A stretch of 64,000 nucleotides of DNA from Patescibacteria group bacterium (GCA_041650995.1 JBAZJZ010000001.1:7891-71890); one strand, 5' to 3'; shown: positions 3,509 to 61,162, numbered from the stretch's first letter. Notes: generated by a model from the letters alone, not told the origin. Made by a program: numbers and translations.

Positions 3509-3784
3509 TTATTCCGTAGCCTTTGGGTTTGGAGAATAAAGAGTATTTTTTATCCGCCATTTTTCTACGTATTGCCCAAGTCCTTTTGTTTCAGTTTTAT
3601 ATTTTACAAGCGGTCGCTGTTGGGACCATTTCACAAGGCTCGCGAAGTCGATTTTATATCTTCCGCGGACGACGACATAACGCAGAGATTGATCTTTTAG
3701 TGCCCGGCGGATGGTGAGGGGGTTAACCCCAAAAAGGCGAGCGGCCTCCGACACGGAAACACGGATTGGATTTTGATTGGCCAT
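3509..3784 (-). CDS. helix-turn-helix DNA-binding protein (excisionase/MerR-like HTH)
   Basis: The N-terminal motif RVSVSEAARLFGVNPLTIRRAL matches the excisionase-family HTH pattern. It is 91 aa and sits adjacent to a REP repeat copy. Confidence 0.55.
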   Translation of the reverse strand: MANQNPIRVSVSEAARLFGVNPLTIRRALKDQSLRYVVVRGRYKIDFASLVKWSQQRPLVKYKTETKGLGQYVEKWRIKNTLYSPNPKATE

Positions 3785-3819
3785 AAGTTGATAATAATGT
3801 GTAAATTATTTATTAAGGA

Positions 3820-3870
3820 GTGACACGCTTTAGCGTGTTATCGGTGTAACAGCCTAAAGGCTGTCAGTCC
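3820..3870. repeat. REP-like double-hairpin repeat, solitary copy in reverse orientation
   Basis: gtgACACGCtttaGCGTGTtatcggtgtaACAGCCtaaaGGCTGTcagtcc is the reverse complement of the unit that is repeated many times at 10040-11166 around the RAYT gene. Confidence 0.8.
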
Positions 3871-4130
3871 AGCCCATTTGATAAATTAATTTTATTTAAT
3901 TATTTTATTGATTTAAAAATTTAAAATTAATAGATTAAAACCTTGCCAAAAGTTTATATTATTGTTAAGGTAATGTATAAATTAATGTCTACATTTATAT
4001 TATAAAACATTGATTTTATTTGTAAAGATTTGGGGTGTGGATAAATAAGATAATATTAATCTAAACATTTTGTATATAATATCTTTAACATCAAAATGGT
4101 AAAACACGGAAGTCGAGACAGTGAAATTAT

Positions 4131-4159
4131 TTGTAATTTTAGCGGTTTTTCTCTATAAT
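4131..4159 (+). promoter_or_regulatory. sigma70-type promoter, TTGTAA-N17-TATAAT, for the ECF sigma operon
   Basis: TTGTAA (4131-4136), a 17-nt spacer, and TATAAT (4154-4159) lie 34 nt upstream of the ATG at 4193. Confidence 0.5.
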
Positions 4160-4192
4160 GAGGCTGTAACAAAATTCTAAAAAATCGTCTCA

Positions 4193-4801
4193 ATGAGTAG
4201 AAGCTTGAAAGAACAATATCTTTTCCTTAAATTGCGCGCCACCCGTGACCCAGAGGTCTTCGGCAAACTTTACGATATTTATGTTGATCAGATTTATCGG
4301 TTTATCTATTTTAAAGTCGGCCGAAAGGAAGAAGCAGAAGATTTAACGGGTGATGTTTTCTTGAAAACCTGGCAATACATAAATGAAATGGGTTCGGAAG
4401 TGATTGATAATCTGCGCGCCTTTCTTTATCAAACCGCGAGAAATACTGTAATAGATTTTTACCGTTCGCGAGATCAAAAAGAATTTGTCGCCTTGCCGCA
4501 AGAAAGCGATGAAGAAAAATCGGCCGCTGTGGAAATAGTTGATGAGAAGCAGGATTTGGTGGAAAAAATTGAACTGGCCTCAGACCTTGAAGAAGTTAAA
4601 AAAGCTTTACAAAAAATAAGAGAAGAATATCGCGAAATAATAATTCTCAGATTTATTGAAGAAATGAGCGTGAAAGAAACAGCGGAAATTTTAGGAAAAT
4701 CGGAAGGGGCGGTTAGAGTTCTGCTCCACCGCGCCGTCGCCGCCTTAAAAGAAGAAGCCACGCGAAAAGTTTTAGCGAAAAATCAAAATTATGTCCACTG
4801 A
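4193..4801 (+). CDS. RNA polymerase sigma-70 family, ECF-type sigma factor
   Basis: Region 2 is recognisable (FGKLYDIYVDQIYRFIYFKV...TGDVFLKTW). Region 4 has an HTH (MSVKETAEILGKSEGAVRVLLHRAVAALK). The length is 202 aa. Confidence 0.85.
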   Translation: MSRSLKEQYLFLKLRATRDPEVFGKLYDIYVDQIYRFIYFKVGRKEEAEDLTGDVFLKTWQYINEMGSEVIDNLRAFLYQTARNTVIDFYRSRDQKEFVALPQESDEEKSAAVEIVDEKQDLVEKIELASDLEEVKKALQKIREEYREIIILRFIEEMSVKETAEILGKSEGAVRVLLHRAVAALKEEATRKVLAKNQNYVH

Positions 4802-6059
4802 TTTGATAAAAAAACTCAAAGGGCTAAAGAGAATTGAAGCAAGGACCGAATGGAAAAAATCCAATCGGGAATTTTTGATGTCGCAGATTGAGAATAATTT
4901 AAGTGAGAATTCTATAAATGAAGGTTGGGCGTTGGAGTTATCAAAAATCGTTTTTCCTTGGAAAGTAATGAAATTAGTAGCCCGTCCGGCCATGGCTCTT
5001 GTAACAGTTGCCGCACTTGTTTTGGGTAGCGGTCTGTCTGTTTCCGCTTCGCAATTGGCGTTGCCTGGCGACGCGCTTTATGGTTTGAAGATTGCTTCCG
5101 AAAAAGTGCAGGTGGCTCTGACTTTTGATAAAAAAGAATCGGCAAAAATGCACGTTGAGCTGGCTGGAAAAAGAATAAATGAAATAAAGAAAATAAAAGA
5201 AAATACTGATTCGGTTGAGAAAAAAACTAAGAAAATTAATGTTGCCATGGATAAATTTAAAGAAGAAATTTCTACAGTGCAAAATAAATTAGATAATCTA
5301 AACAAAGAATCGTCTCCTGAGGCTACGGTTGAGGTGGCTAAAATTATTGACAACAAAACAGCTGAGTATCAGAAAGATTTGGTTACGGCTACGAATGAAT
5401 TACCCACGTTGAATGGAGCGGCGAAAAACATAAATCAGAGTTTGGACTTAGCGGATAAAACAAGCGATGCAGCCTTGGCTTTAGTTGTGGAAAAACATGT
5501 TCAAGGAGTTGTGATTTTGACAGGAGAATCCGAGGGAGATGTTTTAAAAAGAGTCGGTGAAAAAATTGAAATCATAGAAGAAAAAGTAGAGGCAGTTTCG
5601 GGACAAGCAAGCGGCTTGACCTTACCAGTTGATCCGGCCGCGACCCTTGTGGCTCAACAGACGGTCGGCCAGGCAAAAGTTGTTTTAGGGGAAGCTCGCG
5701 AAGCTTTAAATAAAAAAGATTTGAGCATTGCCTTAACTAAAGCTATTGAAAGTAAAGAGTTGGCCAGGCAAGCGGAGCAGATAGCCACCGAAGCAGTTGC
5801 CGCTGTTCCCGCCCTGACAGAAGTTGCGGATTGTGGCGAAGCTTGTGGCGAGAATGTCACAGAACAAAATCCTGATTTGACGGATACCGCAGAGAATGTT
5901 ACAAACACTAAAACCGAAGTGAATACAAATACCAACACAGTAAAAACATACATCCCGGTCAAAGTTGTCACGCCGCCTCCGCCGGCCGAGCCAGTTATTG
6001 ATGAAAGCACTTTAAAAGTAGGGATTGACATAGTGCAGGAGCCGACAGCCACAGAGTAA
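4791..6059 (+). CDS. putative anti-sigma factor / DUF5667-like single-pass membrane protein
   Basis: Its start overlaps the sigma-factor stop (ATGTCCACTGA). It has a short cytoplasmic N-terminus, one TM helix (ARPAMALVTVAALVLGSGLSV), and a periplasmic segment (QLALPGDALYGLKIASEKVQVAL) resembling DUF5667, followed by a long coiled coil. Confidence 0.5.
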   Translation: MSTDLIKKLKGLKRIEARTEWKKSNREFLMSQIENNLSENSINEGWALELSKIVFPWKVMKLVARPAMALVTVAALVLGSGLSVSASQLALPGDALYGLKIASEKVQVALTFDKKESAKMHVELAGKRINEIKKIKENTDSVEKKTKKINVAMDKFKEEISTVQNKLDNLNKESSPEATVEVAKIIDNKTAEYQKDLVTATNELPTLNGAAKNINQSLDLADKTSDAALALVVEKHVQGVVILTGESEGDVLKRVGEKIEIIEEKVEAVSGQASGLTLPVDPAATLVAQQTVGQAKVVLGEAREALNKKDLSIALTKAIESKELARQAEQIATEAVAAVPALTEVADCGEACGENVTEQNPDLTDTAENVTNTKTEVNTNTNTVKTYIPVKVVTPPPPAEPVIDESTLKVGIDIVQEPTATE

Positions 6060-6194
6060 TTTTAATTTTTAATTCTTAAATTTATAAATCGATAAAAGCA
6101 TAAAGGTCGACCCAAATGGGGCTTTTGTCATTAATAAAAATAAACACGAATTGAAAACCAAGAAATAAACGCGAGTTTATTCTTAGTTTGGTTC

Positions 6195-9100
6195 GTGGCA
6201 AAACAAGAAATTTACTTTATGAACGATTTGATTAAAAGCGGGAAGAAAGTCTTCACGTTTGCCGTTGTTCTTACCACAATCGTTTGGTCAATCGGAGTTG
6301 GCGCTTTGGCACTGCCATTAGCTGCTAATGCCGTGACATCTGGCGATTTGATTAAGGGCTCTGGCACCGCCGTTTATTATTACGGCGCGGACGCGAAGAG
6401 ATATGTATTCCCATATCAGGCTGCTTATGCGTCATGGTATGGCTCCACCTTTGGTGCTGTCACCACTATGACCGACGCAGATTTAATTGCCATTCCTTTT
6501 GGCGGTAACGTGACTGTTCGTCCGGGCAAATTAGCCCAGATTGTCAGCATGGATTCTCCTTGGATGGTAATGGATCCTAAAGTTTACGCCGTAGAAAAAG
6601 ACAACGTTCTTCGCTGGGTTAAATCCGCGGACGTCGCTGTCGCCATCTTCGGCGCGACCTGGGAATCACAGATTGTCGCTATTCCAGAAGCTCTCCTCAC
6701 CAATTACACAATTGGCGCGGAAATCAATGCTGCTGGTGACTACAGTTTAGCCACTCAGCAAGCTGTTGCCTCAATCAATGAGTGCAAAGGTTTGACCGGC
6801 GTTTCCGGTGGTGGAGCCTTAACAGTCTCCTTAGCCTCCGACACTCCGGCTGCCGCTTCAGTGCCAAAGAGCGCGGCTGACGTTAACTTCACAAAGGTTA
6901 ACTTCACTGCTGGCGCCGCTGATGTTGTCATTACCGGCCTTAAGGTCACACGATCCGGTCTTGGTATTGACGCGAATTTAAGCGCCGTGAAACTTTTTGT
7001 TGATGGCGTGCAACGCGGCACTTCTCAGAGTTTAGGTTCGCTTCATCAAGCAACCTTCTCTTTGACCTCAAACCCGATTACGATTTCTGCCGGCACCACA
7101 AAAGCGGTTATGTTGGCTGCTGATATTGCTGCCGCGACCGCGTTTGATCAGCATATCTTGGGCATTGCCAATGTTGCTGATATTACCACAACTTCATCAG
7201 TTTCCGGCACGTTCCCAATCAATGGTAACGTGATGTCTTTGGTCAACACTTCAATCGGTTCCGCCACAATTTCAGGCGGTCCATTGAATCCGGGCTCTTC
7301 GTCAGGCGATGTCGGAATTGATCCGGCCGCGGTTGGTTTTAGATTTTCACAGATTAAAATTGCCGCTGGCTCAGTCGAGCCGATCGTTGTTGATCAGATC
7401 AGCGCCATCAAAAATGGCACTGCTGCCAACACTGATGTCAAAAATATTGAACTCTTCAACGATACAGCTGGCGTTTCTTTAGGAACTGTGACTGGTTTGG
7501 ATTCAAACGGCAAAGCCGTATTTTCAAACCTGAATCTAACAGTTGCCAAGGGCGCTTATGTTGAATTGTCAATTAAGGCCGATATGGCTGGCGGTTCTGG
7601 CAGAACAATCGGTTTTGACGTCCATGATGGCACATCATTCTCCGGCATGATAAAGGGTGGAACCTTTAACTTTGGTATTACCCCGACCTTTACCAACACG
7701 GTTGCTTTCTGCGACACTGGTGTTACAGATTACACCTGTCAAAGACAAACAATTAATCAGGGCTATTTAACAGTTTCAAAGAGCGCTTTAGCTCCGGCCA
7801 CTAGCAAAGTTGCCGTGGGCGGATCAAACGTTCCTTTGATGGCCTTTGATTTTGTCGTGGCTGGCGAGCCGATCAATGTCACTTCAACAGTGGTTCGTTA
7901 CACCACTGCCGATGGCACTGGTACAGGTGGAACTGGTATTAGAACGTATGTTACTAATTTCACATTAGTAACAGCTGACGGCACCATTTTGGCTGGTCCA
8001 AAAGATGGCGCTACCACCAACAACAGCGTTGGTACGGAAACATTGACCATTACTGATGGTTACACTTTGCCGGTTGGCACAACTGTGGTTTATGCTAAAG
8101 CGAATTTGGACACAAGAATGACCGCTGGAAACACGATTGTTGTTGATATGCAGACCAGCGCGATTACTGGCAAAGGCGCGAATTCTGGCAAAACCACTTA
8201 CACCACTTCAACCGGCGGAACCGTTCCTCCGGCATCTATAATCACTGGCAACACGATGACTTTGCAAGGTCCGGTATTAGCCGTCACCACAGCCGCGACT
8301 CCGGTTGTCGGCAATATGGTGGTTAACGCGCAGGATCAGGTTCTTGCCTATTTTGATTTGGATGCTTCAGGTGGTGGTGAAAACATCAGAATTTCAGCTA
8401 TTACCGTAACGGCTACTGACGCAGTAGCTGCCTCACGCCCGGTCGCTGACTTCAACAATTTTGAACTTTGGGGCGATCCGGATAACACTGACGCCACAGC
8501 AGTGAATGAACGCTTGGTGACTTCAAATTCAACCGCCACAATGGTTGACGGAGGCGCTACGACAGCGACACTGGCGTTTACGTTCCAAACCCCAATCGTT
8601 GTTTCTAAAACAGCAACTTCTCGCCTAACTTTAAAAGCAGATGTTGTTGGTAATACTACTTCTGTGACTGCATGGAATGTTGCCGCAGGCGGAGATGTTA
8701 CTGCGATTGGCGCGACTACTGGTAATACAGCCTCAAAGAGCGTTTCGGGGAATGGACAACAGCAGTCAACCCAGGCAAGCGGCACTTTGAAGGTTGAAAA
8801 AGCGGCTGATATGCCGTCTGCTGTTCAGCTCGTTTCGTCCTCAACCGGCAATGAAGTGATGAAATACAAATTCACCACTCAATATGAGCCAGTTGACATC
8901 ACGACGATCGGTCTCTTCTGCGGTAACAACGCTCAAGGCGGCACAAGCTGCACTTTGGGCAACATCGCGAAACTTTATGTTTATGCTGATGGTGTCTTGG
9001 TCGGCAATACCGGAGGCTACTCTTTAGATGCCAATGGTCTCGCTACCGTTGTCTTGGATAGCGGAACTTTGGTTATTCCAAAGGACAGCTATAAGACAAT

Positions 9101-9959
9101 CACCATCAAGGCTGATTTGCCTGACAAGACTCAGGTGACGACCTCTGCTGGTGCTTTGATCCAAATTGGTATTGAAGCCGCGAAGACAAATGGCACGGTC
9201 AGAGATGAGGATAATACTTGGGGCGATGGAGCTGGCGACCAGGACTACTGGATTATTGCGACTGGCCAATCTTCAGGCGCGATAATTGACAAAGATACCA
9301 TTAACAGTGCGGCGCATGCCACAACTGGCCAAGTCTTTGCTTCAAATGGCTTCAGTGCTCACAAAGGTATCTTAACTGTCAGCTTGAACGCTTCTTCACC
9401 TTCCGGCACTCAAACCGCTGGCTTGAATAAGGAAGTCTTAAGACTCAACCTTACTGCCACTGGTGATGATATCACTATCAGAGAATTGGAAATGGTGAAC
9501 AGCGGCACAGCGACTATCTCCGGTACTGGCGACTTAACCGTGAAGAGCGATGATCTTGGCACAACTTATGCCACGGTCGTGACTGCCAACGCCAACACTT
9601 ATGGCGGCAGCACTGCTCCTCTCGCGGCTCAGTTGTCAATTGGTCCGAATGGCTGCACCGTTGGTGCTGCTGACGGCACTGGTGATAAATGCGCTGCTGG
9701 TTGGGCTGCGGCCGACAATCTCCAGATTGCGGCTGGTACCACGAAAGTCATCAGAATCTTTGGTGACACGACTGGCGCCCTTTCAACCAAAACCTACCAG
9801 ATGTCAGTCAGCAACTCTGCCGCGAATAAGACCACCATGTTTGGTGTGACTTATCGCGACAGCTCTGGCACTGATGTCGGCGATAGGACTGGTTCAGCGG
9901 ACAGCACACATCCAGCAACCAAGAATCTGCCTTTGACTGGCGGAAGCTTGAGCTACTAA
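6195..9959 (+). CDS. giant secreted/surface protein (1254 aa), Thr/Ser/Gly/Ala-rich, with an N-proximal conserved ~150-aa module shared with four other surface proteins
   Basis: It has a signal/anchor sequence (FTFAVVLTTIVWSIGVGALALPLAANA). Residues ~50-195 (GDLIKGSGTAVYYYGADAKRYVFP...SW...VRPGKLAQIV...KVYAVE..VLRWV...VAIPE) are homologous to the C-terminal domains of 12306, 14910, 17833 and 20852. The rest is beta-rich low-complexity sequence. A terminator follows at 9986-10016. Confidence 0.7.
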   Translation: MAKQEIYFMNDLIKSGKKVFTFAVVLTTIVWSIGVGALALPLAANAVTSGDLIKGSGTAVYYYGADAKRYVFPYQAAYASWYGSTFGAVTTMTDADLIAIPFGGNVTVRPGKLAQIVSMDSPWMVMDPKVYAVEKDNVLRWVKSADVAVAIFGATWESQIVAIPEALLTNYTIGAEINAAGDYSLATQQAVASINECKGLTGVSGGGALTVSLASDTPAAASVPKSAADVNFTKVNFTAGAADVVITGLKVTRSGLGIDANLSAVKLFVDGVQRGTSQSLGSLHQATFSLTSNPITISAGTTKAVMLAADIAAATAFDQHILGIANVADITTTSSVSGTFPINGNVMSLVNTSIGSATISGGPLNPGSSSGDVGIDPAAVGFRFSQIKIAAGSVEPIVVDQISAIKNGTAANTDVKNIELFNDTAGVSLGTVTGLDSNGKAVFSNLNLTVAKGAYVELSIKADMAGGSGRTIGFDVHDGTSFSGMIKGGTFNFGITPTFTNTVAFCDTGVTDYTCQRQTINQGYLTVSKSALAPATSKVAVGGSNVPLMAFDFVVAGEPINVTSTVVRYTTADGTGTGGTGIRTYVTNFTLVTADGTILAGPKDGATTNNSVGTETLTITDGYTLPVGTTVVYAKANLDTRMTAGNTIVVDMQTSAITGKGANSGKTTYTTSTGGTVPPASIITGNTMTLQGPVLAVTTAATPVVGNMVVNAQDQVLAYFDLDASGGGENIRISAITVTATDAVAASRPVADFNNFELWGDPDNTDATAVNERLVTSNSTATMVDGGATTATLAFTFQTPIVVSKTATSRLTLKADVVGNTTSVTAWNVAAGGDVTAIGATTGNTASKSVSGNGQQQSTQASGTLKVEKAADMPSAVQLVSSSTGNEVMKYKFTTQYEPVDITTIGLFCGNNAQGGTSCTLGNIAKLYVYADGVLVGNTGGYSLDANGLATVVLDSGTLVIPKDSYKTITIKADLPDKTQVTTSAGALIQIGIEAAKTNGTVRDEDNTWGDGAGDQDYWIIATGQSSGAIIDKDTINSAAHATTGQVFASNGFSAHKGILTVSLNASSPSGTQTAGLNKEVLRLNLTATGDDITIRELEMVNSGTATISGTGDLTVKSDDLGTTYATVVTANANTYGGSTAPLAAQLSIGPNGCTVGAADGTGDKCAAGWAAADNLQIAAGTTKVIRIFGDTTGALSTKTYQMSVSNSAANKTTMFGVTYRDSSGTDVGDRTGSADSTHPATKNLPLTGGSLSY

Positions 9960-9985
9960 TCTCTGAATTCGTTGATATAGAAAAA

Positions 9986-10016
9986 GCAGGGCGCTTCGGC
10001 GCCCTGCTTTGATTTT
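9986..10016 (+). terminator. rho-independent terminator
   Basis: GCAGGGCGCttcgGCGCCCTGC hairpin followed by TTTGATTTTGT. Confidence 0.7.
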
Positions 10017-10039
10017 GTGGTAAAATAAATACAACGGGT

Positions 10040-10300
10040 TGACAGCCTCCACAATAAACACGGACTGACAGCCTTTAGGCTGTTACGATAACACGCTAAA
10101 GCGTGTCACTCCACAATAAACACGGACTGACAGCCTCCACAATAAACACGGACCGACAGCCTTTAGGCTGTTACAATAACACGCTAAAGCGTGTCACTCC
10201 AATTACTTCTATGTTCCCTCAAGATCGTAATGCCCATCGTCCGCCACATTTAAGTGGTAACACCCTAAAGGGTGTCACTCCGGGTGTCACTCCGGACAAT
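10040..10300. repeat. REP-like repeat array, upstream flank of the RAYT gene
   Basis: It contains repeated units of ccacaataaacacggactgacagcc and the double hairpin ACAGCCtttaGGCTGT...ACACGCtaaaGCGTGT, plus a variant ACACCCtaaaGGGTGT. Confidence 0.8.
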
Positions 10301-10789
10301 AATATTTATTTTATTACCGTGAGAACCGTGGATCAAAAACCATATTTTGACGCTGATTTTAAAAAGAAATTATTTTGTCTTTGCCTAAAGGCAGGACTCC
10401 AAAAATTTGAGATTCATTTATACGCCTGGGTGTTGTTGAATAACCATTATCATCTGTTATTTAAGATTCTGTCAGGGGAAAATTTATCTAAATTTATTAA
10501 TTTTATTAACGGCAAAAGCTCTTTTGAACTAAATAAATTGGAGAACGAACAAGGCCGTAAAATTTGGTACCAATATTTTGACCATTGTATTCGCGACGAA
10601 GCTGATTTTTGGAAACATTTTAATTACATTCACCAAAATCCGGTAAAGCATGGTTTGCGCACCGACTTGGCGGGCATTTTTGCTTATCCCTTTTCAAGCG
10701 CGAAAAATTGGAGTAAAATAAAAGGGGAAGAGTGGGTTGATTCGTGTTTTGAACTTTATCCGATTGTTGATTTTATTGCGGGGGAATAA
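10211..10789 (+). mobile_element. REP-associated tyrosine transposase (RAYT; IS200/IS605-like HuH Y1 transposase). The start is uncertain: the ORF is open from 10103 through the repeats
   Basis: It carries the HuH motif (LLNNHYHLLF) and the catalytic Tyr motif (NYIHQNPVKHGL) at the expected spacing. The N-terminal beta-strand region reads IYFITVRT. It is flanked on both sides by REP hairpin arrays, which is the classic RAYT/REP organisation. Confidence 0.75.
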
Positions 10790-10794
10790 CGCCG

Positions 10795-11166
10795 CGGTCG
10801 GAATGACAGCCTTCAGGCTGTTACGATAACACGCTAAAGCGTGTCATTCCACAAAAACATAGATTGACGGTCAGACTGACAGCGCCTGCAACTTTTCGGA
10901 ATGACAGCCTTCAGGCTGTTAAAACTAGATAACACGCTAAAGCGTGTCATTCCACAAAAACATAGATTGACGGTCAGACTGACAGCGCCTGCAACTTTTC
11001 GGAATGACAGCCTTCAGGCTGTTAAAACTAGATAACACGCTAAAGCGTGTCATTCCACAAAAACATAGATTGACGGTCAGACTGACAGCGCCTGCAACTT
11101 TTCGGAATGACAGCCTTCAGGCTGTTATGGTAACACCCTAAAGGCTGTCACTCCGGGTATTACTCC
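10795..11166. repeat. tandem array (~3.5 copies, period 98-103 bp) of REP double-hairpin units, downstream flank of the RAYT gene
   Basis: The unit is ggaatgACAGCCttcaGGCTGTtacgataACACGCtaaaGCGTGTcattccacaaaaacatagattgacggtcagactgacagcgcctgcaacttttc. It repeats head-to-tail at 10801, 10899, 11002 and 11105 (the last copy is partial and variant). Confidence 0.85.
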
Positions 11167-11210
11167 AAAATTTAATTTAAAAAACATTTTAATAATTAAT
11201 TTAAAAACCT

Positions 11211-11870
11211 ATGACCAAAAAAACAAAAATCATTATCCTTGTCGTAGTCCTCGTTTTAATTCTTGGCGGACTTCTTGCCTGGAAAACATGGAGTTGGCAA
11301 GGAAAGATGGGGGATCTGAGAAACTATGTTTCTTCCTTATTTTCCAGTGAAGAAGAAAATTTGCCTGAAGATATTAAAGCAGCTTATGAAACTCTAAAAA
11401 ATGATCCGTCGGACACAAGCTCTTACATAAAAATCGCACTCTGGAAAAGGGACAATGGCGATTTGGAAGAGGCGGTTAGATTGTATGAAAAAGCCTTGGA
11501 AATTAAACCGGACGACACGCTTCTTTTGATGAATATCGCTGATCTTTACATAAGAAATGAACAATACCCTGAGGCGGCCGGGGCTTATGTAAAAGTTATG
11601 GAAAGCAATCCAAAGTGGCTTGCCGCTTATCGCGGTTTGGCTGATCTCTACCGCTATCAAATGCCGGAGAGAAAAATTGAAATTCCAAGTATTTTGAAAA
11701 AAGGTCTGGAAGCCAATTCAGAAAATGAACTTTACTTTGTTGGGCCGCTTGCTATTTACTACAAAGATTTTGGTCCGGAAGACGAGGCCATTCGCTGGTA
11801 CGAGCGCTTGATTGAACTTGATCCGGAAAATACTACGGCGAAGAATGAACTTGAAGAATTGAAGAAATAA
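11211..11870 (+). CDS. tetratricopeptide (TPR) repeat protein with an N-terminal TM anchor
   Basis: It has a TM helix (IIILVVVLVLILGGLLAW) and TPR-like helices (AVRLYEKALEIKPDD, AAGAYVKVMESNPKW, AIRWYERLIELDPEN). Confidence 0.7.
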   Translation: MTKKTKIIILVVVLVLILGGLLAWKTWSWQGKMGDLRNYVSSLFSSEEENLPEDIKAAYETLKNDPSDTSSYIKIALWKRDNGDLEEAVRLYEKALEIKPDDTLLLMNIADLYIRNEQYPEAAGAYVKVMESNPKWLAAYRGLADLYRYQMPERKIEIPSILKKGLEANSENELYFVGPLAIYYKDFGPEDEAIRWYERLIELDPENTTAKNELEELKK

Positions 11871-11966
11871 ATAATAAAATTTTAATTTTTAATGTACCAA
11901 TCTTATTCCCTGAGCGAAGCGTAGCGGAGTCGAAGGGCGGCCTTCGACAAGCTCAGGCCGTAGCAT

Positions 11967-12236
11967 ATGCCAGGATGGAAGTGGTACATTTATATTATTC
12001 GGTGTAAAGATAAAAGTTATTACACTGGTTTGACATGGCAGCCAAGTGATCGCTGGGCACAGCACCTGTCCGGTTTTGGGGCGGAATACACCAAACTTCA
12101 TAAGCCGGAAAAAGTTGTCTTTTTGGAAGAATATGAAGATTTGGAAGAGGCGAGGAGGAGAGAAAAACAAATAAAGGGTTGGACAAGAAAAAAGAAAGAA
12201 AAATTGATTAAGGGTGAGTGGAGCAAATGGGAATAG
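11967..12236 (+). CDS. GIY-YIG nuclease-domain protein, 89 aa, stand-alone
   Basis: WYIYIIRCKDKSYYTGLT....R..QH is the GIY-YIG motif, and C-terminal ...EKQIKGWTRKKKEKLI resembles the UPF0213/YhbQ family. It is bracketed by near-identical 21-bp direct repeats (11939-11959 and 12236-12257). Confidence 0.75.
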   Translation: MPGWKWYIYIIRCKDKSYYTGLTWQPSDRWAQHLSGFGAEYTKLHKPEKVVFLEEYEDLEEARRREKQIKGWTRKKKEKLIKGEWSKWE

Positions 12237-45974: not shown

Positions 45975-47600
45975 ATGACCAAGTTTATTTTTGTCGTGGG
46001 CGGAGTGATGTCCGGGGTAGGAAAGGGCACGGCCGCTGCTTCTATCGGAAAAATTTTGCAGGGTAAAGGTTTTAGGGTGACGGCGGTGAAAATTGATCCT
46101 TACATTAATGTTGATGCCGGCACCATGAATCCAGTTGAGCATGGAGAGGTTTTTGTAACTGAGGACGGCGATGAAACGGATCAGGACATAGGAAATTACG
46201 AAAGATTTTTAGACACGAACATTTATTCGGACAACTACATGACCACTGGCCGGGTTTATCAGACGGTTATCCAAAAAGAAAGAAATTTGGAATATGGCGG
46301 ACGGTGCGTGGAAGTCGTTCCCCACGTTCCGGAAGAAGTAATTAGAAGAATTCGCCGAGCGGCAAAAATTGCTAAAGCAGATTTTGTAATTGTGGAAGTT
46401 GGCGGGACAGTCGGTGAATATCAAAATGTTTTATTCTTGGAAGCAGCAAGAATGCTTCATCAGCGGCGTCCGGACGACGTCCTTTTTGTTTTAGTGAGCT
46501 ATTTACCGATTCCGTCAAAAATTGGTGAGATGAAAACCAAGCCTACTCAGCAGGCGGCTCAACTTCTAAACGCCGCCGGGATCCAACCGGATTTTATTTT
46601 GTGCCGCGCCGAGCAGCAGATTGACGAGCCGAGAAAAAGAAAAATTTCAATTTTTTGCAACGTGGATAAGCGCGATATTATTTCCGCGCCGGATATAGAT
46701 TCAATTTACGAAGTGCCACTTAATTTTGAAAAAGAACAGTTGGGGCAGAGAATTCTTTCAAAATTTTATATGCGCGCGCGGCAAAAGGATTTAGTAGAAT
46801 GGAAAAAGCTTGTCAAAACCATAAAAACAGCTAAGGGCGAGGTGCGAGTTGGCGTTGTGGGAAAATATTTTACCACAGGAAATTTTGTTTTGTCTGACGC
46901 CTACATCTCCGTGATTGAGGCAATAAAGCACGCGGCTTGGGCGCATAACCGTAAGCCGGTTTTGACCTGGTTAAATTCTGAAGAGTATGAAAAAGATCCG
47001 TCAAAACTTAAAGAATTAAAAAGTCTTGACGGAATAATCGTGCCGGGCGGTTTTGGTTCGCGCGGCGTGGAAGGAAAGATAAAAGCGATTCAATATTGTC
47101 GAGAAAATAAAATTCCTTATTTTGGATTATGTTACGGTATGCAAATGGCAGTGGTAGAATTTGCGAGAAATATTTGTGGTCTTGCAGACGCTAACACGGC
47201 GGAAATTAATCCAAAAACGACGAATCCGATTATTCATATTATGGAAAATCAAAGTGATTTGGTGAAAAATAAAAAATACGGCGGGACGATGCGACTTGGC
47301 GCGTACCCTTGCATTTTAAATAAAAAATCTTTGAGTTATAAAGCTTACGGCCAAAAAAATATTTCTGAACGCCATCGCCACCGCTACGAATTTAATAATA
47401 CTTATCGTGAACAATTTGAAAAAGCAGGGCTTGTGATTGCCGGTGCGTCGCCAGACAATAGTTTGGTAGAGATAATTGAAGTGAAGGATCATCCATTCTT
47501 CGTTGGAGTGCAATTTCATCCCGAGTTTAAATCTCGCCCGCTAAATCCACATCCGCTTTTTAAAGAATTTATTTCTGCCTGTTTAAAGTCTCGCGGATAA
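45975..47600 (+). CDS. pyrG: CTP synthase
   Basis: FIFVVGGVMSGVGKGTAAASIGKIL...; a GATase domain with GLCYGMQ; 541 aa. Confidence 0.95.
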   Translation: MTKFIFVVGGVMSGVGKGTAAASIGKILQGKGFRVTAVKIDPYINVDAGTMNPVEHGEVFVTEDGDETDQDIGNYERFLDTNIYSDNYMTTGRVYQTVIQKERNLEYGGRCVEVVPHVPEEVIRRIRRAAKIAKADFVIVEVGGTVGEYQNVLFLEAARMLHQRRPDDVLFVLVSYLPIPSKIGEMKTKPTQQAAQLLNAAGIQPDFILCRAEQQIDEPRKRKISIFCNVDKRDIISAPDIDSIYEVPLNFEKEQLGQRILSKFYMRARQKDLVEWKKLVKTIKTAKGEVRVGVVGKYFTTGNFVLSDAYISVIEAIKHAAWAHNRKPVLTWLNSEEYEKDPSKLKELKSLDGIIVPGGFGSRGVEGKIKAIQYCRENKIPYFGLCYGMQMAVVEFARNICGLADANTAEINPKTTNPIIHIMENQSDLVKNKKYGGTMRLGAYPCILNKKSLSYKAYGQKNISERHRHRYEFNNTYREQFEKAGLVIAGASPDNSLVEIIEVKDHPFFVGVQFHPEFKSRPLNPHPLFKEFISACLKSRG

Positions 47601-47635
47601 AATATTACCCCATATTATAATTTTATTTTAGATCC

Positions 47636-48448
47636 ATGAAGCGTATTATTTTTCCAATATTAGCAATTTTATTTCTTTCCGGCTGTTTAATACAACAGCC
47701 GACTGTTGTTAATAAAAATATTTCTGGTAATCAAAATAGTGTTAGTCCGCCCGCGGTTAACTTAGCCTCAAATGTAAATCAAGAAAATAATGAGCTGGCC
47801 AACGCGAATACTAACACTAATACTAATATTAATAATGAAACGCCGGCAGTCGTTTTGCCTGTTAAATTTGATCTCAAAGTTCCTTTCGCCTCTCAAGCTC
47901 CTCAGGGTGATTGGAGTATGCCATACCAGGAAGCCTGTGAAGAAGCTTCAATGATTATGGTGGCGCGGTATTTCAAAAATGAAAAATTGGACAATAATAT
48001 AATGGCAGAGGAAATTTTGAAGTTAGCGCAATGGGAAGAGGATAATGGCTATCCGATAGATTTAACTGCCGAGCAGACAGCCGAGGTTCTCCAGAAATAT
48101 TTTGGACTTAAGGCGACCCTCAACAAAATGGTTTCGGAAGCGGAGATAAAGAAACAATTGATCGCGGGAAATTTGATTATTGTTCCTTTGGCCGGACGAG
48201 ACATTGGCAATCCTTATTACACTCAACCCGGGCCGCTTTATCACATGCTTTTGATTCGCGGCTTTGACGAAGATGAATTTATTACAAACGACCCTGGAAC
48301 AAAACGCGGTGAGGCATATCGTTATAAATATGGTGATCTGCTTTGGGCAGTACACGATTGGGTAGGCGGTGATCGAGAGTTTCATGATCCCAGGCCAGAG
48401 CCGGATATGCGGACTGGGGAGCGAATAATGATAGTTGTAGAAAAATAA
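47636..48448 (+). CDS. lipoprotein with a C39-like (papain-fold) peptidase domain
   Basis: It has a lipobox (FLSGC) and then FASQAPQGDWSMPYQEACEEASMIMVARYF, which resembles the Peptidase_C39_2 / BtrH-like Cys-containing segment. Confidence 0.4.
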   Translation: MKRIIFPILAILFLSGCLIQQPTVVNKNISGNQNSVSPPAVNLASNVNQENNELANANTNTNTNINNETPAVVLPVKFDLKVPFASQAPQGDWSMPYQEACEEASMIMVARYFKNEKLDNNIMAEEILKLAQWEEDNGYPIDLTAEQTAEVLQKYFGLKATLNKMVSEAEIKKQLIAGNLIIVPLAGRDIGNPYYTQPGPLYHMLLIRGFDEDEFITNDPGTKRGEAYRYKYGDLLWAVHDWVGGDREFHDPRPEPDMRTGERIMIVVEK

Positions 48449-48516
48449 AGGGTATTCGACCTTTGTTGATTGTGCTCACCGTCCCGCAGTACTGCGGGAT
48501 CTCACTCGCTTATCAA

Positions 48517-48547
48517 TAAAAAAAAACAAAAGAAGGCTACTCCAGCC
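48517..48547. terminator. bidirectional hairpin terminator between the convergent lipoprotein and rpmA genes
   Basis: AAAGAAGGCTactccAGCCTTCTTTTA. Confidence 0.6.
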
Positions 48548-48580
48548 TTCTTTTAATGTTAATGGAATCTTTTCTATTTT

Positions 48581-48865
48581 TTACGCTTTCTTGGGGAGGA
48601 CATTCACGATTTTGGTCAGACGTAAATGTCCATCAAATTTTGTTTTCTTCTTCGTAGCGAATTTGACCATACCGTCAGCAACTGAATACAAAGTATCATC
48701 ACTGCCGCGCCGGACATTTTGTCCGGGATGAATTTTTGTGCCGCGTTGGCGGACTAAAATACAGCCGGGATGGGCCATCTGGCCTTCGGTCATTTTTACG
48801 CCTAATCTTTGAGCTTGTGAATCGCGGCCTAAACTAGTAGAACCGCCTGCTTTTTTATGAGCCAT
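48581..48865 (-). CDS. rpmA: 50S ribosomal protein L27 (true start at MAHKK; the ORF-track N-terminal extension derives from tandem repeats)
   Basis: [24 protein letters not shown]...[16 protein letters not shown] is the L27 signature. Confidence 0.9.
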
Positions 48866-48867
48866 AT

Positions 48868-48925
48868 TTTTTAGCCGATAAGCTAATAAGCTGGTAAGCC
48901 GATAAGCTAATAAGCTGGTAAATTG
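48868..48925. repeat. 2.3 tandem copies of a 24-bp unit (GCCGATAAGCTAATAAGCTGGTAA), heptad-structured, in the rpmA leader
   Basis: agccgataagctaataagctggtaagccgataagctaataagctggtaaattgataag, immediately 5' of the rpmA start. Confidence 0.8.
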
Positions 48926-49071
48926 ATAAGTTTCAGATGTTTTATATGTTATCAAAGAGTTTTTAGGCTGTCAACCTTATTTTAGGTCTACCCTTGAATT
49001 TAAAAGATAAATGAGATATAATTGAAAAATAGATTAAAGATTTTTGGTTAAAAAATAAACAAAATAAATAT

Positions 49072-49293
49072 ATGAAAACAGAATCTTTCAGAATGGCTTT
49101 TGAGACAGAGAAGGACATTACATGGATGGTAGTTATTGAAGAATTGTTTAAACATCTAAAGGGTGAATCAGACGTTGAAAAAAGGAAAAATATTGAGGAT
49201 GAAATCAGAGAGCAGTTAAAGAGATATCGAAGAGAGTTTGGCAAAACAGCGGTCGAGCCTTATTATGAAGAATTAAAAAAATTTAAAAAGTAG
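49072..49293 (+). CDS. hypothetical small charged protein (73 aa)
   Basis: Complete ORF upstream of nifU; no motif. Confidence 0.3.
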   Translation: MKTESFRMAFETEKDITWMVVIEELFKHLKGESDVEKRKNIEDEIREQLKRYRREFGKTAVEPYYEELKKFKK

Positions 49294-49300
49294 CAGTTTT

Positions 49301-49696
49301 ATGTCTCAAATTATGTATTCAAAGGAAGTTATAAAACATTTTAAAACTCCGCATAATCAAGGGGTGATTAAAAATCCGACGGTTGTCGGAGAGTCGGGAA
49401 ACCCTCTCTGCGGTGATATGATGAAATTATATTTAAAAATTGATAAGAAAAAAGTCGGCGGGAAAATAGTTGATTATATTAAAGACATTAAATTTGAAAC
49501 TCTGGGTTGCGCCGCGGCCATTGCCACGTCGTCCATGATTACTGATTTAGTAAAGGGAAAGGAAGTAGAAGAAGCAGCCAAGGTGACGAAAGCCAATATA
49601 GCCGATTCATTGGGCGGTCTGCCGCCAATAAAGTTACACTGCTCGGTTTTGGCGGTTGAGGCCCTGCATGACGCGATTAAAAAATTAAATAAATAA
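49301..49696 (+). CDS. nifU: Fe-S cluster assembly scaffold protein (IscU/SufU/NifU N-domain)
   Basis: It has the three conserved Cys ([27 protein letters not shown]) and [11 protein letters not shown]. Confidence 0.8.
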
Positions 49697-49700
49697 ATTT

Positions 49701-49925
49701 ATGAAAAATAAAGTTAAAAAAATTTTAGACGAAATACGGCCGGCTCTTCAAGCTGATGGAGGAGATGTGGAATTAGTTGATGTCGATGAAAAAACCGGCG
49801 TGGTGAAAGTTAAACTTGTTGGTGCTTGTCATCATTGCCCAATGGCGGCGATGACCCTTGAGCAGGGAATCGCGAGAGTCTTGAAAGCAAAAATTAAAGA
49901 AGTGAAAGAAGTGCAAGCGGTGTAA
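49701..49925 (+). CDS. NifU C-terminal (Nfu-like) domain protein
   Basis: [42 protein letters not shown] carries the CxxC Nfu motif. Confidence 0.7.
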
Positions 49926-49929
49926 ATTT

Positions 49930-51129
49930 ATGAAGCGAATATATTTTGATCATTCGGCTACGACGTCAGTTGACCCGCAAGTTTTGCGGGCGATGTTGCC
50001 GTATCTAAAAAATAATTTTGGCAACGCGTCGTCGCTTCATTTTTTTGGTCAAAAAGCGCGAATCGGGGTCGAAAAAGCGCGGGAGCAAGTGGCAAAATTT
50101 TTGTCTTGCAAATCTAAGGAAATTATTTTTACTTCTGGAGGGACAGAAAGTAATAATCTGGCGATAGTTGGTTTTGTCCGTCGGGCGCGCGCGCTTGATC
50201 CGAAAAGAAAAATTCACGTAATCACTTCGGCGATTGAACATCCGGCGGTTTTTGAGGTTTGTCGCGAATTAAAAAAAGAAGAAGTTGAAGTTACATATTT
50301 GCCTGTCAGTCGCAAGGGAATAGTAAAATTGGAAGATTTCAAAAAGGCAATTCAGCCAGAAACGATTTTAGTTTCCATAATGTATGTTAATAATGAAGTC
50401 GGCACAATCCAGCCGATACAAGAAATTAGCCGGATTGTCAAAGAGGTAAACGCCGGTCGCGGTAATGAAGACAAAATTTATTTTCATACCGACGCGGTTC
50501 AGGCGGTAAATTTTTGTAATTGCCGAGTTGATTTTTTGGGAGTTGATATGTTATCTTTTTCGGCACACAAAATTTACGGACCAAAGGGAACGGGTATTCT
50601 TTTTGTGCGAGAAGGCACGCCACTTTTCCCAATTATTTTTGGTGGCCATCAGGAACGGGGGATCCGCTCCGGGACGGAAAATGTCGCGGGGATAGTTGGG
50701 CTTGGCAAGGCAGTGGAACGATTGAGTGAAAAGTTAAAAGTTAAAAGTGAAAATTTAAGGATAAAAAAATTGCGTGATAAATTGGTAAAGGGAGTTTTAC
50801 AAAAGATTCCCGGCGTAATTTTTAACGGTGATTTAAAACAGCGTGTACCGGGAAATATTAATTTCTGTTTCAAAAATGTAGAGGGTGAGAGTATTTTATT
50901 GATGCTTGACATGGAAGGCATCGCCATCTCTACTGGTTCAGCTTGCTCTTCCGGATCGCTTGAGCCGTCGCACGTCCTTTCCGCCATGGGAATTTCTCCA
51001 GAGATTTCTCACGGAAGCGTGCGCATCACTTTAGGAAAAAACAATACCGAAGAAGAAGTGCGCCGCTTAATTAAAGTATTGCCTGGCATTGTGGCGAAAT
51101 TACGCGAGATGTCGCCCATCAAAAACTAG
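49930..51129 (+). CDS. nifS: cysteine desulfurase (NifS/IscS type)
   Basis: IYFDHSATTSVDPQVLRAMLPYL; a PLP lysine region (SFSAHKIYGPKG); catalytic Cys (STGSACSSG). An in-frame AAGTTAA heptad block lies at 50727-50755. Confidence 0.9.
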   Translation: MKRIYFDHSATTSVDPQVLRAMLPYLKNNFGNASSLHFFGQKARIGVEKAREQVAKFLSCKSKEIIFTSGGTESNNLAIVGFVRRARALDPKRKIHVITSAIEHPAVFEVCRELKKEEVEVTYLPVSRKGIVKLEDFKKAIQPETILVSIMYVNNEVGTIQPIQEISRIVKEVNAGRGNEDKIYFHTDAVQAVNFCNCRVDFLGVDMLSFSAHKIYGPKGTGILFVREGTPLFPIIFGGHQERGIRSGTENVAGIVGLGKAVERLSEKLKVKSENLRIKKLRDKLVKGVLQKIPGVIFNGDLKQRVPGNINFCFKNVEGESILLMLDMEGIAISTGSACSSGSLEPSHVLSAMGISPEISHGSVRITLGKNNTEEEVRRLIKVLPGIVAKLREMSPIKN

Positions 51130-51141
51130 ATTGCCTTTCAA

Positions 51142-51534
51142 ATGATTTTTTTCATCGCCATTAAAAATTTTTTCAGACTTTTCACCGTCCTTATTTTTAA
51201 AGACGGATTTTTTAGATTACTATTTTTTTTCTCGCTGGCGGTGAATTTATTTATTTGGGGTTTTCTTTATTTAAAATTTTCTCCACTTCGGGCGCTGGGA
51301 GAAAATTTTCCCCTGCATTATAATATTTATTTTGGAGTTGATTTTATTGGCAGGTGGTACGAAATATTTATTATGCCGCTTATCGGTACTTTTTTTATCG
51401 CCATCAATTTTATTTTGGCGGATATAATTTATTTAAGAGATAAAATCACAAGTTATTTCTTGACGGGAGCCGGCGCTTTTATTCAAATTTTACTTCTTTT
51501 AGCCGCTTATTCGGTCGTTATGATTAATCAATGA
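51142..51534 (+). CDS. hypothetical integral membrane protein (130 aa)
   Basis: Four hydrophobic helices; no motif. Confidence 0.35.
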   Translation: MIFFIAIKNFFRLFTVLIFKDGFFRLLFFFSLAVNLFIWGFLYLKFSPLRALGENFPLHYNIYFGVDFIGRWYEIFIMPLIGTFFIAINFILADIIYLRDKITSYFLTGAGAFIQILLLLAAYSVVMINQ

Positions 51535-51537
51535 AAT

Positions 51538-52587
51538 ATGGACAATTTTTCAATCATTAAAATTTTTATTCTCACGACTTTTTCGTTTATCATGGCTATG
51601 TCCTGGACACCGGCTCTGACTTATTTTTTGTTTAAATATAAATTGGGCAAGCAAATCAGGGATGAAAAATCGGCGCCGATAATGTCGGCGCTCCATAAAG
51701 CGAAATCCGGCACGCCGACCATGGGCGGAGTTTTAATTTGGGTTACAGTTTTAGTTTTAGCTTTGTTGGTTTTTTATCTTGGGGAGTGGACGGGCTCGGA
51801 GTTGCTAAAAAAATTTAATTTTTTAACGCGTTCTCAAACGCTTTTACCTTTGGGGGCGCTCGTCGCTTCGGCAATAGTTGGTTTAGTTGATGACTATTTA
51901 AACGCGCGGAGAATTGGACCGAACGGCGGGGGTTTTAGAATGCGCCACAGGCTTTTGATGTATACCTTGATCGCAGCGGTTGGCGCGTGGTGGTTTTATT
52001 TTAAACTTGATTGGGATTTTATCCACGTTCCTTTTTTAGGAAGTTTTTCTATCGGATGGTGGTATATTCCTATTTTTATTTTTATAATTGTCGCGACATC
52101 TTTTTCAGTAAACGAAAGCGACGGTCTGGATGGTCTGGCCGGGGGACTGCTTTTAGCCGCTTTTGCCGCATATGGCGCGATTGCTTTTTCTCAGGGGAAA
52201 ATGGATTTAGCTGCTTTTTGCGGCGTGATTGCCGGGTCTCTCCTGGCTTTTCTTTGGTTTAACATCAACCCCGCTAGATTTTTTATGGGTGATACAGGGG
52301 CGATGTCGCTCGGCGTGACGCTTGGCATCGTGGCTATGCTTACGAATTCAGTTTTACTTTTACCAATCATCGGATTTTTGTTCGCAGTAGAATCAATTTC
52401 CGTGATTATTCAAATTATTTCCAAAAAAATTAGAAGAAAAAAGGTTTTTCTTTCAACCCCCCTCCATCATCACCTCGAGGCTATTGGTTGGCCCGAGCCC
52501 AAAATTGTTATGCGCTTCTGGGTCATTGCCGGAGTGATGGCAGTCGTGGGTTTTATTATTTCGCTCATGGATGTTGGCTTGGGATAA
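51538..52587 (+). CDS. mraY: phospho-N-acetylmuramoyl-pentapeptide transferase
   Basis: It has DDYLNARR, NESDGLDGLAGG and HHHLE motifs. Confidence 0.9.
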   Translation: MDNFSIIKIFILTTFSFIMAMSWTPALTYFLFKYKLGKQIRDEKSAPIMSALHKAKSGTPTMGGVLIWVTVLVLALLVFYLGEWTGSELLKKFNFLTRSQTLLPLGALVASAIVGLVDDYLNARRIGPNGGGFRMRHRLLMYTLIAAVGAWWFYFKLDWDFIHVPFLGSFSIGWWYIPIFIFIIVATSFSVNESDGLDGLAGGLLLAAFAAYGAIAFSQGKMDLAAFCGVIAGSLLAFLWFNINPARFFMGDTGAMSLGVTLGIVAMLTNSVLLLPIIGFLFAVESISVIIQIISKKIRRKKVFLSTPLHHHLEAIGWPEPKIVMRFWVIAGVMAVVGFIISLMDVGLG

Positions 52588-52611
52588 AAAGTGATTTATG
52601 TTTTTTAAAGT

Positions 52612-53709: not shown

Positions 53710-53713
53710 TTTT

Positions 53714-54784: not shown

Positions 54785-54866
54785 AAAGTATTACTTTTTG
54801 TTATCCACGCTCGTTCGGAAATGAAATTAAAATTTCATTTCTCTCACTCGCTTGATAATAAAAAAA

Positions 54867-54917
54867 CAAGGACAGAATTTTGTGAAACCTTTCCTCCCGG
54901 AGGGTTTTTCTGTCCTT
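54867..54917 (-). terminator. rho-independent terminator of the GGDEF gene (minus strand)
   Basis: On the minus strand it reads CAAGGACAGAAaaaccctccgggaggaaaggtttcacaaaaTTCTGTCCTTG followed by TTTTTTTATT. Confidence 0.6.
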
Positions 54918-54926
54918 GAGGTTCTT

Positions 54927-55607: not shown

Positions 55608-55634
55608 GATTACCTCCCTCTGCTGTTATCTATC

Positions 55635-55663
55635 GCAACTTTTTATTTTAGGATAAAGTATTG
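55635..55663 (-). promoter_or_regulatory. sigma70 consensus promoter (TTGACA-N17-TAAAAT) driving the GGDEF gene
   Basis: On the minus strand: TTGACA aaaccaatactttatcc TAAAAT, then ...GGGAGGtaatc ATG. Confidence 0.5.
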
Positions 55664-55727
55664 GTTTTGTCAAGATAAAATAAAACCTCTCAATCTAAGG
55701 TTTTATTGAATTTAAGGAAATAAAAAA

Positions 55728-55800
55728 TGACCCGGCTGGGGCTCGAACCCAGGACCCTCTGCTTAAAAGGCAGATGCTCTACCAGCTGAGCTACCGGGTC
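55728..55800 (-). tRNA. tRNA-Lys (anticodon UUU)
   Basis: The reverse complement GACCCGGTAGCTCAGCTGGTAGAGCATCTGCCTTTTAAGCAGAGGGTCCTGGGTTCGAGCCCCAGCCGGGTCA folds into a canonical cloverleaf: 7-bp acceptor, 4-bp D stem, 5-bp anticodon stem with loop CTTTTAA, and a 5-bp T stem with TTCGAGC loop. Confidence 0.85.
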
Positions 55801-57044: not shown

Positions 57045-57067
57045 AGATTTTTAAATTAAAAATATTT

Positions 57068-61159: not shown

Positions 61160-61162
61160 AAT

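Follow-up and report, generated by a model that had tools for sequence, protein, structure and literature searches.

A 64,000-nt stretch of DNA from a Patescibacteria group bacterium (GCA_041650995.1 JBAZJZ010000001.1:7891-71890; hereafter the window, with positions counted from its first nucleotide) very probably contains a REPtron, namely one vertically inherited, domesticated transposase gene of the HUH/Y1 type standing amid arrays of its cognate hairpins, the repetitive extragenic palindromes (REPs), in a Falkowbacteria-like host. The gene encodes a REP-associated tyrosine transposase (RAYT, or TnpA-REP). This RAYT/REP organisation had been proposed in an initial annotation made from the sequence, and it is borne out by a match of the protein to a curated family model and by REPs on both flanks of the gene. 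The features of the locus, including two stretches of REP or REP-like material within the open reading frame (ORF), are the following:

3817-3870, minus strand: solitary REP doublet, reading GGAGTGACACGCTTTAGCGTGTTA-TCGGTG-TAACAGCCTAAAGGCTGTCAGTCC on the plus strand, found by exact or one-mismatch matches
10040-10050, plus strand: half-REP TGACAGCCTCC, a 5' foot and half stem without loop or return arm, within a 26-nt and an 88-nt repeat
10062-10112, plus strand: 5' REP doublet 1 (GGACTGACAGCCTTTAGGCTGTTA-CGA-TAACACGCTAAAGCGTGTCACTCC), two 6-bp hairpins with a predicted fold of -11.4 kcal/mol, z -4.0
10124-10138, plus strand: second half-REP, GGACTGACAGCCTCC, from sequence inspection and repeat finding
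10150-10200, plus strand: 5' REP doublet 2, ending 10 nt ahead of the RAYT start codon
10211-10789, plus strand: RAYT/TnpA-REP gene, 192 aa, stop codon at 10787-10789, assigned from Pfam, NCBIfam, alignments, the 4ER8 structure and dN/dS
10253-10294, plus strand: in-frame REP-derived segment SGNTLKGVTPGVTP, codons 15-28, a REP variant and a 12-nt duplication
10377-10400, plus strand: REP-B-like hairpin GTCTTTGCCTAAAGGCAGGACTCC, which encodes CLCLKAGL and departs from the REP-B pattern at one position
10798-11127, plus strand: tandem array, 3.3 copies of a 103-nt unit made of a REP doublet and a 47-nt linker that holds the half-REP GACTGACAGCGCCTGC
10800-10850, 10898-10953 and 11001-11056, plus strand: the doublets within this array, from pattern matches
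11104-11166, plus strand: last doublet, a variant (GGAATGACAGCCTTCAGGCTGTTA-TGG-TAACACCCTAAAGGCTGTCACTCC) with GGGTATTACTCC after it; the right half of the doublet matches the element inside the ORF

Regarding the protein, the ORF carries both signatures recognised in the initial annotation, NNHYHLL with the HuH motif (H79-Y80-H81) and NYIHQNPVKHG with the catalytic tyrosine (Y139), each intact, together with an N-terminal HRPPH motif. Its score against the Y1_Tnp profile PF01797 is 37 bits (cut-off 23), and the curated NCBIfam model REP_Tyr_transpos NF047646, which assigns it as a REP-associated tyrosine transposase, gives 99.9 bits (cut-off 80); the IS200 model NF033573 stops at 19.1 bits, under its cut-off of 55. 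The sole solved structure matched by sequence is that of Escherichia coli TnpA-REP (4ER8, E 3e-6), with the HuH motif and the tyrosine helix aligned. The AlphaFold2 model, for which 107 homologues were used, reaches a mean pLDDT (predicted local distance difference test) of 87, exceeding 94 over residues 30-185, and Foldseek again places 4ER8 as its top PDB match (E 1.8e-9), above the IS608 and ISDra2 TnpA structures. In the 107-sequence alignment, H79, N108, N138, Y139, K146 and H147 are invariant; H81 is close to invariant, as are two N-terminal residues, P11 and H13.

The start codon is fixed at ATG 10211 by the N-termini of the homologues (MLPEDRNIHRPPH...). The question raised at the outset, whether the 5' REP copies overlap the true start of the gene, is thus answered by homology: this ATG lies 10 nt past the last 5' REP. 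A longer ORF of 228 aa, starting with GTG at 10103, was considered as the RAYT gene and ruled out: homologues begin at the methionine equivalent to 10211, and the 36 codons that it adds are REP sequence in translation.

As for the repeats, the unit of the window (REP-A) is 24 nt long and reads GGA[A/C/G]TGACA-SS-CTT[T/C]AG-SS-TGTTA. Two 24-nt search patterns taken from the hairpins, TAACACGCTAAAGCGTGTCAYTCC and GGARTGACAGCCTTYAGGCTGTTA, match the 64-kb window 8 and 9 times with up to 3 mismatches; all 17 matches are within 3817-3870 or 10062-11154, and none occurred in 100 dinucleotide-preserving shuffles of the window. The element annotated at first as a double hairpin does have two hairpins per unit, and it is better described as two REPs in inverse orientation with 3-8 nt of spacer between them (3-25 nt in relatives), that is, as a REPIN-like doublet. 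The two stems of a doublet differ in a compensatory manner (ACAGCC/GGCTGT and ACACGC/GCGTGT), and among copies and families the stems vary yet stay complementary (AGCC/GGCT, ACGC/GCGT, ACCC/GGGT, AGGC/GCCT, ACAC/GTGT). Predicted folds of the doublets have z scores of about -4 to -5; in a doublet of the 3' array, taken as single-stranded DNA, an outer stem GGAATG/CATTCC is predicted to close two 6-bp hairpins (-13.5 kcal/mol, z -5.1). Because the two stems differ, two small hairpins under an outer stem are favoured over one long hairpin.

Two doublets stand on the 5' side of the gene and four on the 3' side, three of the latter in the 103-nt tandem array. Tandem Repeats Finder reports a period of 88 nt with 1.8 copies at 10040-10201 and one of 103 nt with 3.3 copies at 10798-11127, both with 97% matches; the latter is the annotated 3' array of roughly 100-bp units, and two of its units are 100% identical. 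The array described earlier on the 5' side (10040-10300) has to be divided: REP copies are indeed present upstream of the gene, but the extragenic ones end at 10200, and the copy at 10258-10293 is inside the ORF and in frame. Rfam returned no known RNA family at any REP position, and the terminator pattern is matched by only two REP hairpins of the 3' array, on the minus strand only. Half-REPs, each a 5' foot and half stem joined to TCC or to unrelated sequence (GGACTGACAGCC followed by TCC at 10040-10050 and 10124-10138; GACTGACAGCGCCTGC at about 10876-10891 and equivalently in each 103-nt unit), precede full doublets by about 10 nt, as they do in the flanks of the related loci L053, L054 and L081 introduced below; they look like footprints of the deletion or excision of doublets.

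The REP is not confined to the RAYT gene. The reverse-oriented solitary copy noticed at the outset near a helix-turn-helix gene is a complete doublet, placed in the divergent spacer between a gene of the HTH_17/excisionase family (3509-3784, minus strand), whose start is 33 nt away, and a sigma-70 gene. Its predicted fold has -12.8 kcal/mol and z -4.8, and one long imperfect hairpin is also possible. The orthologous spacer of two related loci (L078 and L079), otherwise well conserved, is without this 54-nt doublet and shows a single clean gap of about 56 nt, so that relative to them the doublet appears to be an insertion, with the direction, gain or loss, judged from the alignment. A degenerate REP-A pattern has at least 8 separate extragenic loci in Candidatus Falkowbacteria RIFOXYA2_FULL_38_12, 6 of them inverted doublets, and it also matches other Parcubacteria and Patescibacteria, WOR-3 and a 'Gammaproteobacteria' metagenome-assembled genome (MAG). 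Singleton matches in Bacteroidales, Bacillus, Dinoroseobacter and others were discarded for non-complementary stems or a coding position; by our estimate, chance alone would give about 35 matches of this sort for this pattern at that database size. The exact REP 20-mer occurs on 22 metagenome contigs, almost always in doublets that combine an AGCC stem and an ACGC stem. On other contigs, 52 of 53 REP copies are outside open frames of at least 100 aa, and for the majority the fetched locus (about 1.5-14 kb) contains no RAYT. The same core flanks distant RAYTs with 39-43% identity (L026, L073), and L079 has a solitary doublet of another family, REP-B, 6 kb away from its RAYT.

The core TGACA-stem-CTTYAG-stem-TGTTA, with a GGAGT or GGTG foot, is also multicopy in Gaiella MAGs (L016, L006, L040) and in WOR-3 UBA3073 (L022, L029, L032, L047). 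Its recurrence in unrelated phyla suggests a widely distributed RAYT clade with a conserved hairpin specificity.

The host can be placed by its housekeeping genes: positions 45975-63846 run collinear to a contig of Candidatus Falkowbacteria (GCA_016214745.1), and most of the housekeeping genes compared encode proteins that are 78-95% identical to their counterparts there; therefore the host is a Falkowbacteria-like bacterium of the candidate phyla radiation (CPR). The GC content of the window is about 36-50% with a mean of about 42%, a value that does not fit with the AT-rich genome assumed initially. The RAYT has 128 homologues at E ≤ 1e-3, the closest with 86% identity; the named ones are Patescibacteria (Falkowbacteria, Magasanikbacteria, Buchananbacteria), one carries the JGI label 'REP element-mobilizing transposase RayT', and more than 120 are already present in Patescibacteria and other metagenomic data.

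The gene is held in one chromosomal slot. On five related metagenomic contigs (L053, L054, L055, L078 and L079) the order is, as in the window, large surface protein, terminator, RAYT, TPR protein and Big_1 protein, and in L078 and L079 the synteny reaches back to the GT4, HTH_17, sigma-70 and DUF5667 genes. The RAYTs in this slot are 50-86% identical to that of the window, with a ratio of nonsynonymous to synonymous substitution rates (dN/dS) of 0.09-0.21 at dS of at least 0.7. The gene is a domesticated HUH/Y1 single-strand-DNA transposase inherited vertically and under purifying selection. REPs flank the RAYT orthologues on these five contigs and in L081; the array sizes vary between close relatives, and the REP itself belongs to one of four families:

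REP family A (window, L053, L081 and 3' side of L054): GGAVTGACA-SS-CTTYAG-SS-TGTTA
REP family B (5' side of L054, and L079): GGAGTCCGCCCTTTAGGGCGAGAC in L054 and GGACTCCTCACTTTAGTGAGG in L079
REP family C (L055): GGAATGACAGCGCCTTGCGCTGTTA
REP family D (L078): longer, with the canonical foot GGAGTAGC

Within the coding sequence, the in-frame segment combines a REP variant, TAACACCCTAAAGGGTGTCACTCC (10258-10281), with GGGTGTCACTCC, a direct duplication of 12 nt from the 3' half of this variant. It sits between HRPPH and the first beta-strand (DNNIYFIT), with a net gain of about 12 aa over the homologues, and is absent from 105 of the 107 family members; besides the window only P0001, the closest homologue (L053, 86% identity), has it. 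In the AlphaFold2 model it has a pLDDT below 50 and is N-terminal to strand beta-1, outside the folded core. The 39-nt element at 10255-10293 is 92% identical to 11128-11166, that is, to the right half of the terminal doublet with GGGTATTACTCC. Between the window and L053 the segment is identical at 42 of 42 nt, compared with 84.5% over the remainder of the gene (P ~8e-4), and at 14 of 14 third codon positions, compared with 71% (P ~0.009); this identity could reflect constraint at the nucleotide level or gene conversion among REPs. Inserts are common in the family, about 30 of the 107 members having one of at least 8 aa, with hot spots after residues 14, 42, 88-89 and 111. Two were checked at the DNA level: that of P0012 (L055 3176-3236) is a complete doublet and that of P0013 (L078, about 10204-10340) consists of REP copies throughout, in both cases of the gene's own REP family. 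Among the sequences examined, in-ORF REP copies are found only in the RAYT gene. For subclass 2.4, REPs inserted in frame into tnpA-REP genes were described by Quentin et al. 2018, and some members of subclass 2.8 have one (PMC6006769).

The second stretch, the REP-B-like hairpin, lies in conserved RAYT coding sequence and brings no change of length with respect to the homologues; REP-B is found nowhere else in the window. The L079 orthologue reads TGTCTGAAGACAGGACTCC at this place, with the pairing kept (TGTC/GACA, C-G to T-A). By itself the hairpin folds weakly (z -0.6). The hairpin may go back to an ancient insertion that was exapted, may be the RAYT segment from which family B was born, or may act as a cis-element. 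That the in-ORF REP-A and REP-B-like copies are functional cis-elements and not passive passengers appears rather unlikely, and the case for it draws on two observations: the REP-A insert is identical between orthologues whose synonymous sites have heavily diverged, and the pairing of the REP-B-like hairpin is kept in L079, whose extragenic REPs are of family B. RAYT might then bind its own gene or transcript and tune its own expression; if true, such autoregulation, or the birth of family B, would supply the co-evolution of REP and RAYT with a feedback link or with an account of its origin.

Regarding the mechanism, E. coli TnpA-REP and IS608 TnpA recognise hairpins on single-stranded DNA and perform tyrosine-mediated cleavage and rejoining, and the scheme proposed here is drawn by analogy to them. 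RAYT would bind single-stranded DNA at the short hairpin of the REP and at the conserved foot (GGAxTGACA...TGTTA), and would cleave and rejoin the strand beside the hairpin by means of Tyr139 and a metal held by the HuH motif; REP doublets (REPINs) would thereby be copied, probably at the replication fork, to new positions outside genes, the RAYT gene itself normally staying put. The tandem arrays beside the gene would result from recent local amplification, as suggested by the complete identity of tandem units, either through strand transfer by RAYT between neighbouring REPs or through slippage or unequal exchange. One REP would have inserted, in frame, into RAYT's disordered N-terminal tail, where it is tolerated.

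Several points weigh against the REPtron interpretation. The 64 kb of the window have only two REP loci, and the metagenome assembly could in principle distort the copy number of perfect 103-nt repeats. Catalysis, specificity for REP-A and the route of amplification are argued from analogy. The canonical guide tetranucleotide GT[AG]G is absent from the foot of every REP-A copy (foot GGA[A/C/G]TGAC), and the residue equivalent to E. coli Q95 is a tyrosine, so that the details of recognition may differ; this foot and a tyrosine at the position of the E. coli guide contact are consistent with an altered specificity. The family D REPs of the L078 orthologue do have the canonical foot, and some RAYT subclasses accept non-canonical ones (PMC6006769). 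Finally, the collinear contig GCA_016214745.1 has a second RAYT, P0028 (L082 9953-10586), between ftsW and murG; it is 51% identical to that of the window, with one REP on either side in inverted orientation, and the flanking FtsW and MurG are 88% and 78% identical to their window counterparts. The same junction of the window (53690-53720) is empty, with the ftsW stop at 53700-53702 and the murG ATG at 53714; therefore RAYT genes have been gained or lost with their REPs in this lineage, and the immobility of the gene is not absolute.

This paralogue, with a REP at each side, speaks for an autonomous insertion sequence of the IS200/IS605 type, whose hairpins would be left and right ends that transpose with the gene as a unit. 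For the locus of the window we consider such an element very unlikely. The fold and motifs are of the same superfamily, but the IS200 model fails by a wide score and no tnpB-like ORF adjoins the gene in the ORF listing of the window, which has a single RAYT copy. The direct copies at 10255-10293 and 11128-11166 bracket most of the gene, but the 'left end' so defined would fall within coding sequence, and the flanking elements occur alone elsewhere; the gene is also found in the same slot across relatives that have diverged to dS of 0.7 or more. The opposite possibility, a decaying relic disabled by REP insertion, with REPs that are inert fossils or are kept only for host functions (transcription termination, mRNA stability, DNA structuring), deserves very little credence. 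It could account for a foreign segment of 36-42 nt within the ORF, but that ORF is intact and in frame, its catalytic residues are conserved, and the insert is predicted by the model to lie in a disordered tail; moreover, the gene is not decaying, because dN/dS is 0.10 at dS 0.71 between the window and L053, both of which bear the insertion. The scarcity of REP loci in the window agrees with fossil repeats, but the two identical 103-nt units imply recent amplification. Some minus-strand REP hairpins do fit a terminator-like pattern, and a host use of REPs is compatible with their RAYT-dependent spread.

The repeats near 10800-11170 might also be read as a CRISPR-like or otherwise spacer-bearing array, or as an assembly artefact unrelated to the ORF, given their regular 103-nt periodicity and palindromic repeats. 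This is hardly conceivable: the whole unit is repeated identically, 'spacer' included, with no unique spacers, there is no Rfam match at the positions of the array, and in independent assemblies of other samples (contigs L053, L054, L081) the orthologous RAYT has the same hairpins on its flanks. The REPtron reading is further favoured by the extragenic recurrence of the REP, which had been taken at the start to be present at more than this one locus: the solitary doublet of the window, the Falkowbacteria MAG and the metagenome contigs all bear this out.

As for the surroundings of the gene, a strong, bidirectional, intrinsic-terminator-like hairpin (12 bp, 8 G-C pairs) occupies 9983-10010, between the gene for a 1254-aa surface protein and the 5' REP array. 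L053, L054, L055, L078 and L079 have a comparable terminator hairpin at the same position; its sequence is unchanged in L053 and L079, and the rest have another stem. Consensus scans gave no convincing promoter or terminator for the RAYT gene, which probably needs a promoter of its own, either inside the REP array or following it. Between the TPR and Big_1 genes (11967-12236 in the window), the window and L054 have a stand-alone GIY-YIG nuclease of 89 aa, L078 has a gene of the 23S_rRNA_IVP family (11645-12025) and L079 has nothing; in addition, a bAvd/23S_rRNA_IVP gene follows the DUF5667 gene in L078 and L079, where the window is without one. Small accessory genes thus turn over around the RAYT locus. 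Two further repeats were recorded in the window. One, unrelated to the REPs, is a 153-nt tandem repeat of 2.2 copies (24276-24609, 87% matches) in a 742-aa ORF (22823-25051), probably encoding FG-GAP-like protein repeats; the other is a perfect 24-nt tandem duplication (AGCCGATAAGCTAATAAGCTGGTA x 2) at 48873-48930, in an apparent intergenic region.

Work on REP/RAYT systems has dealt almost solely with Proteobacteria and Cyanobacteria, and the Falkowbacteria group has small, streamlined genomes. Literature text searches combining RAYT with Patescibacteria or CPR gave no paper on such systems, only spurious hits on words and a single passage, unrelated, that concerned archaea. In a survey of complete genomes, the larger ones were enriched in tnpA-Y1 genes (PMC6006769). 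The window and its relatives document a complete REP/RAYT system under purifying selection and in a fixed chromosomal slot of a small-genome, Falkowbacteria-like lineage. The kind of element, the in-frame insertion of REPs and the many database homologues are already known, and no new kind of element is revealed; of moderate interest are the retention in a small genome, the turnover of four REP families, the nucleotide-level conservation of an in-frame REP at the N-terminus and the REP-B-like coding hairpin. Four families at one syntenic slot offer a compact natural series for the co-evolution of REP specificity and transposase, and the same series suits the study of how REPs enter coding sequence and of host benefit as the reason for retention.

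Compared with known systems, the locus resembles the E. coli TnpA-REP (RayT/YafM) REPtron in having a single-domain HUH/Y1 nuclease with the HuH motif and tyrosine aligned to 4ER8, encoded by a single-copy chromosomal gene with REPs on both sides in inverted pairs of two subtypes, as in the Y/Z2 bacterial interspersed mosaic elements (BIMEs) of E. coli. It differs in a sequence identity of only about 20%, in the replacement of E. coli Q95 by tyrosine and of E100 by aspartate, in the REP foot (GGA[ACG]TGAC instead of GTAG), in its short stems (6-8 bp with a 4-nt loop), in the extra N-terminal HRPPH and C-terminal segments and in its Patescibacteria host. With the TnpA of IS200/IS608 elements the window's RAYT shares the fold and, by analogy, presumably also the HuH/Tyr chemistry and the recognition of hairpins on single-stranded DNA; it is set apart by its score under the IS200 cut-off, its single copy, its syntenic position and hairpins that are dispersed without the gene.

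Rickettsia palindromic elements (RPEs) were reportedly found by Ogata and co-workers in 2000 to be inserted in frame in protein genes. Like the in-ORF REP of the window, they are small palindromic repeats tolerated in frame, which add a peptide in a permissive region. RPEs are about 100-150 nt long and occur in many unrelated genes, whereas the insertion of the window is in the RAYT gene itself; RPEs are not known to have a cognate transposase.

By its motifs, the window's RAYT appears closest to TnpA-Y1 subclass 2.8 of Quentin, Siguier, Chandler and Fichant (2018, PMC6006769). It has NHYH, W119-Y120 and a proline-rich N-terminus (HRPPH), where the subclass is marked by HYH, W[YH] and a proline-rich N-terminus, and close relatives in other phyla were noted by the same authors. 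Differences concern the tyrosine motif (YIHQNP in the window, YIHYNP in subclass 2.8), the REPs, which are short doublets without GT[AG]G instead of the long canonical REPs reported for the subclass, and the site of insertion, which is the N-terminal tail instead of the region between the HuH and tyrosine motifs.

Finally, the REPIN-RAYT systems of Pseudomonas fluorescens SBW25 and Enterobacteria (Bertels and Rainey 2011; Bertels et al. 2017, PMC5581495) differ from the window in copy number, which appears low here (two loci in 64 kb, and at least 8 exact-pattern loci in a related MAG) against hundreds in Pseudomonas, and in their doublets, since here the two stems of a doublet differ. The likeness to them extends to the dispersed unit, which is the inverted doublet, to a single-copy RAYT flanked by its REPINs, inherited vertically and under a purifying selection like that of housekeeping genes, and to the REP family, which changes along with the RAYT lineage.

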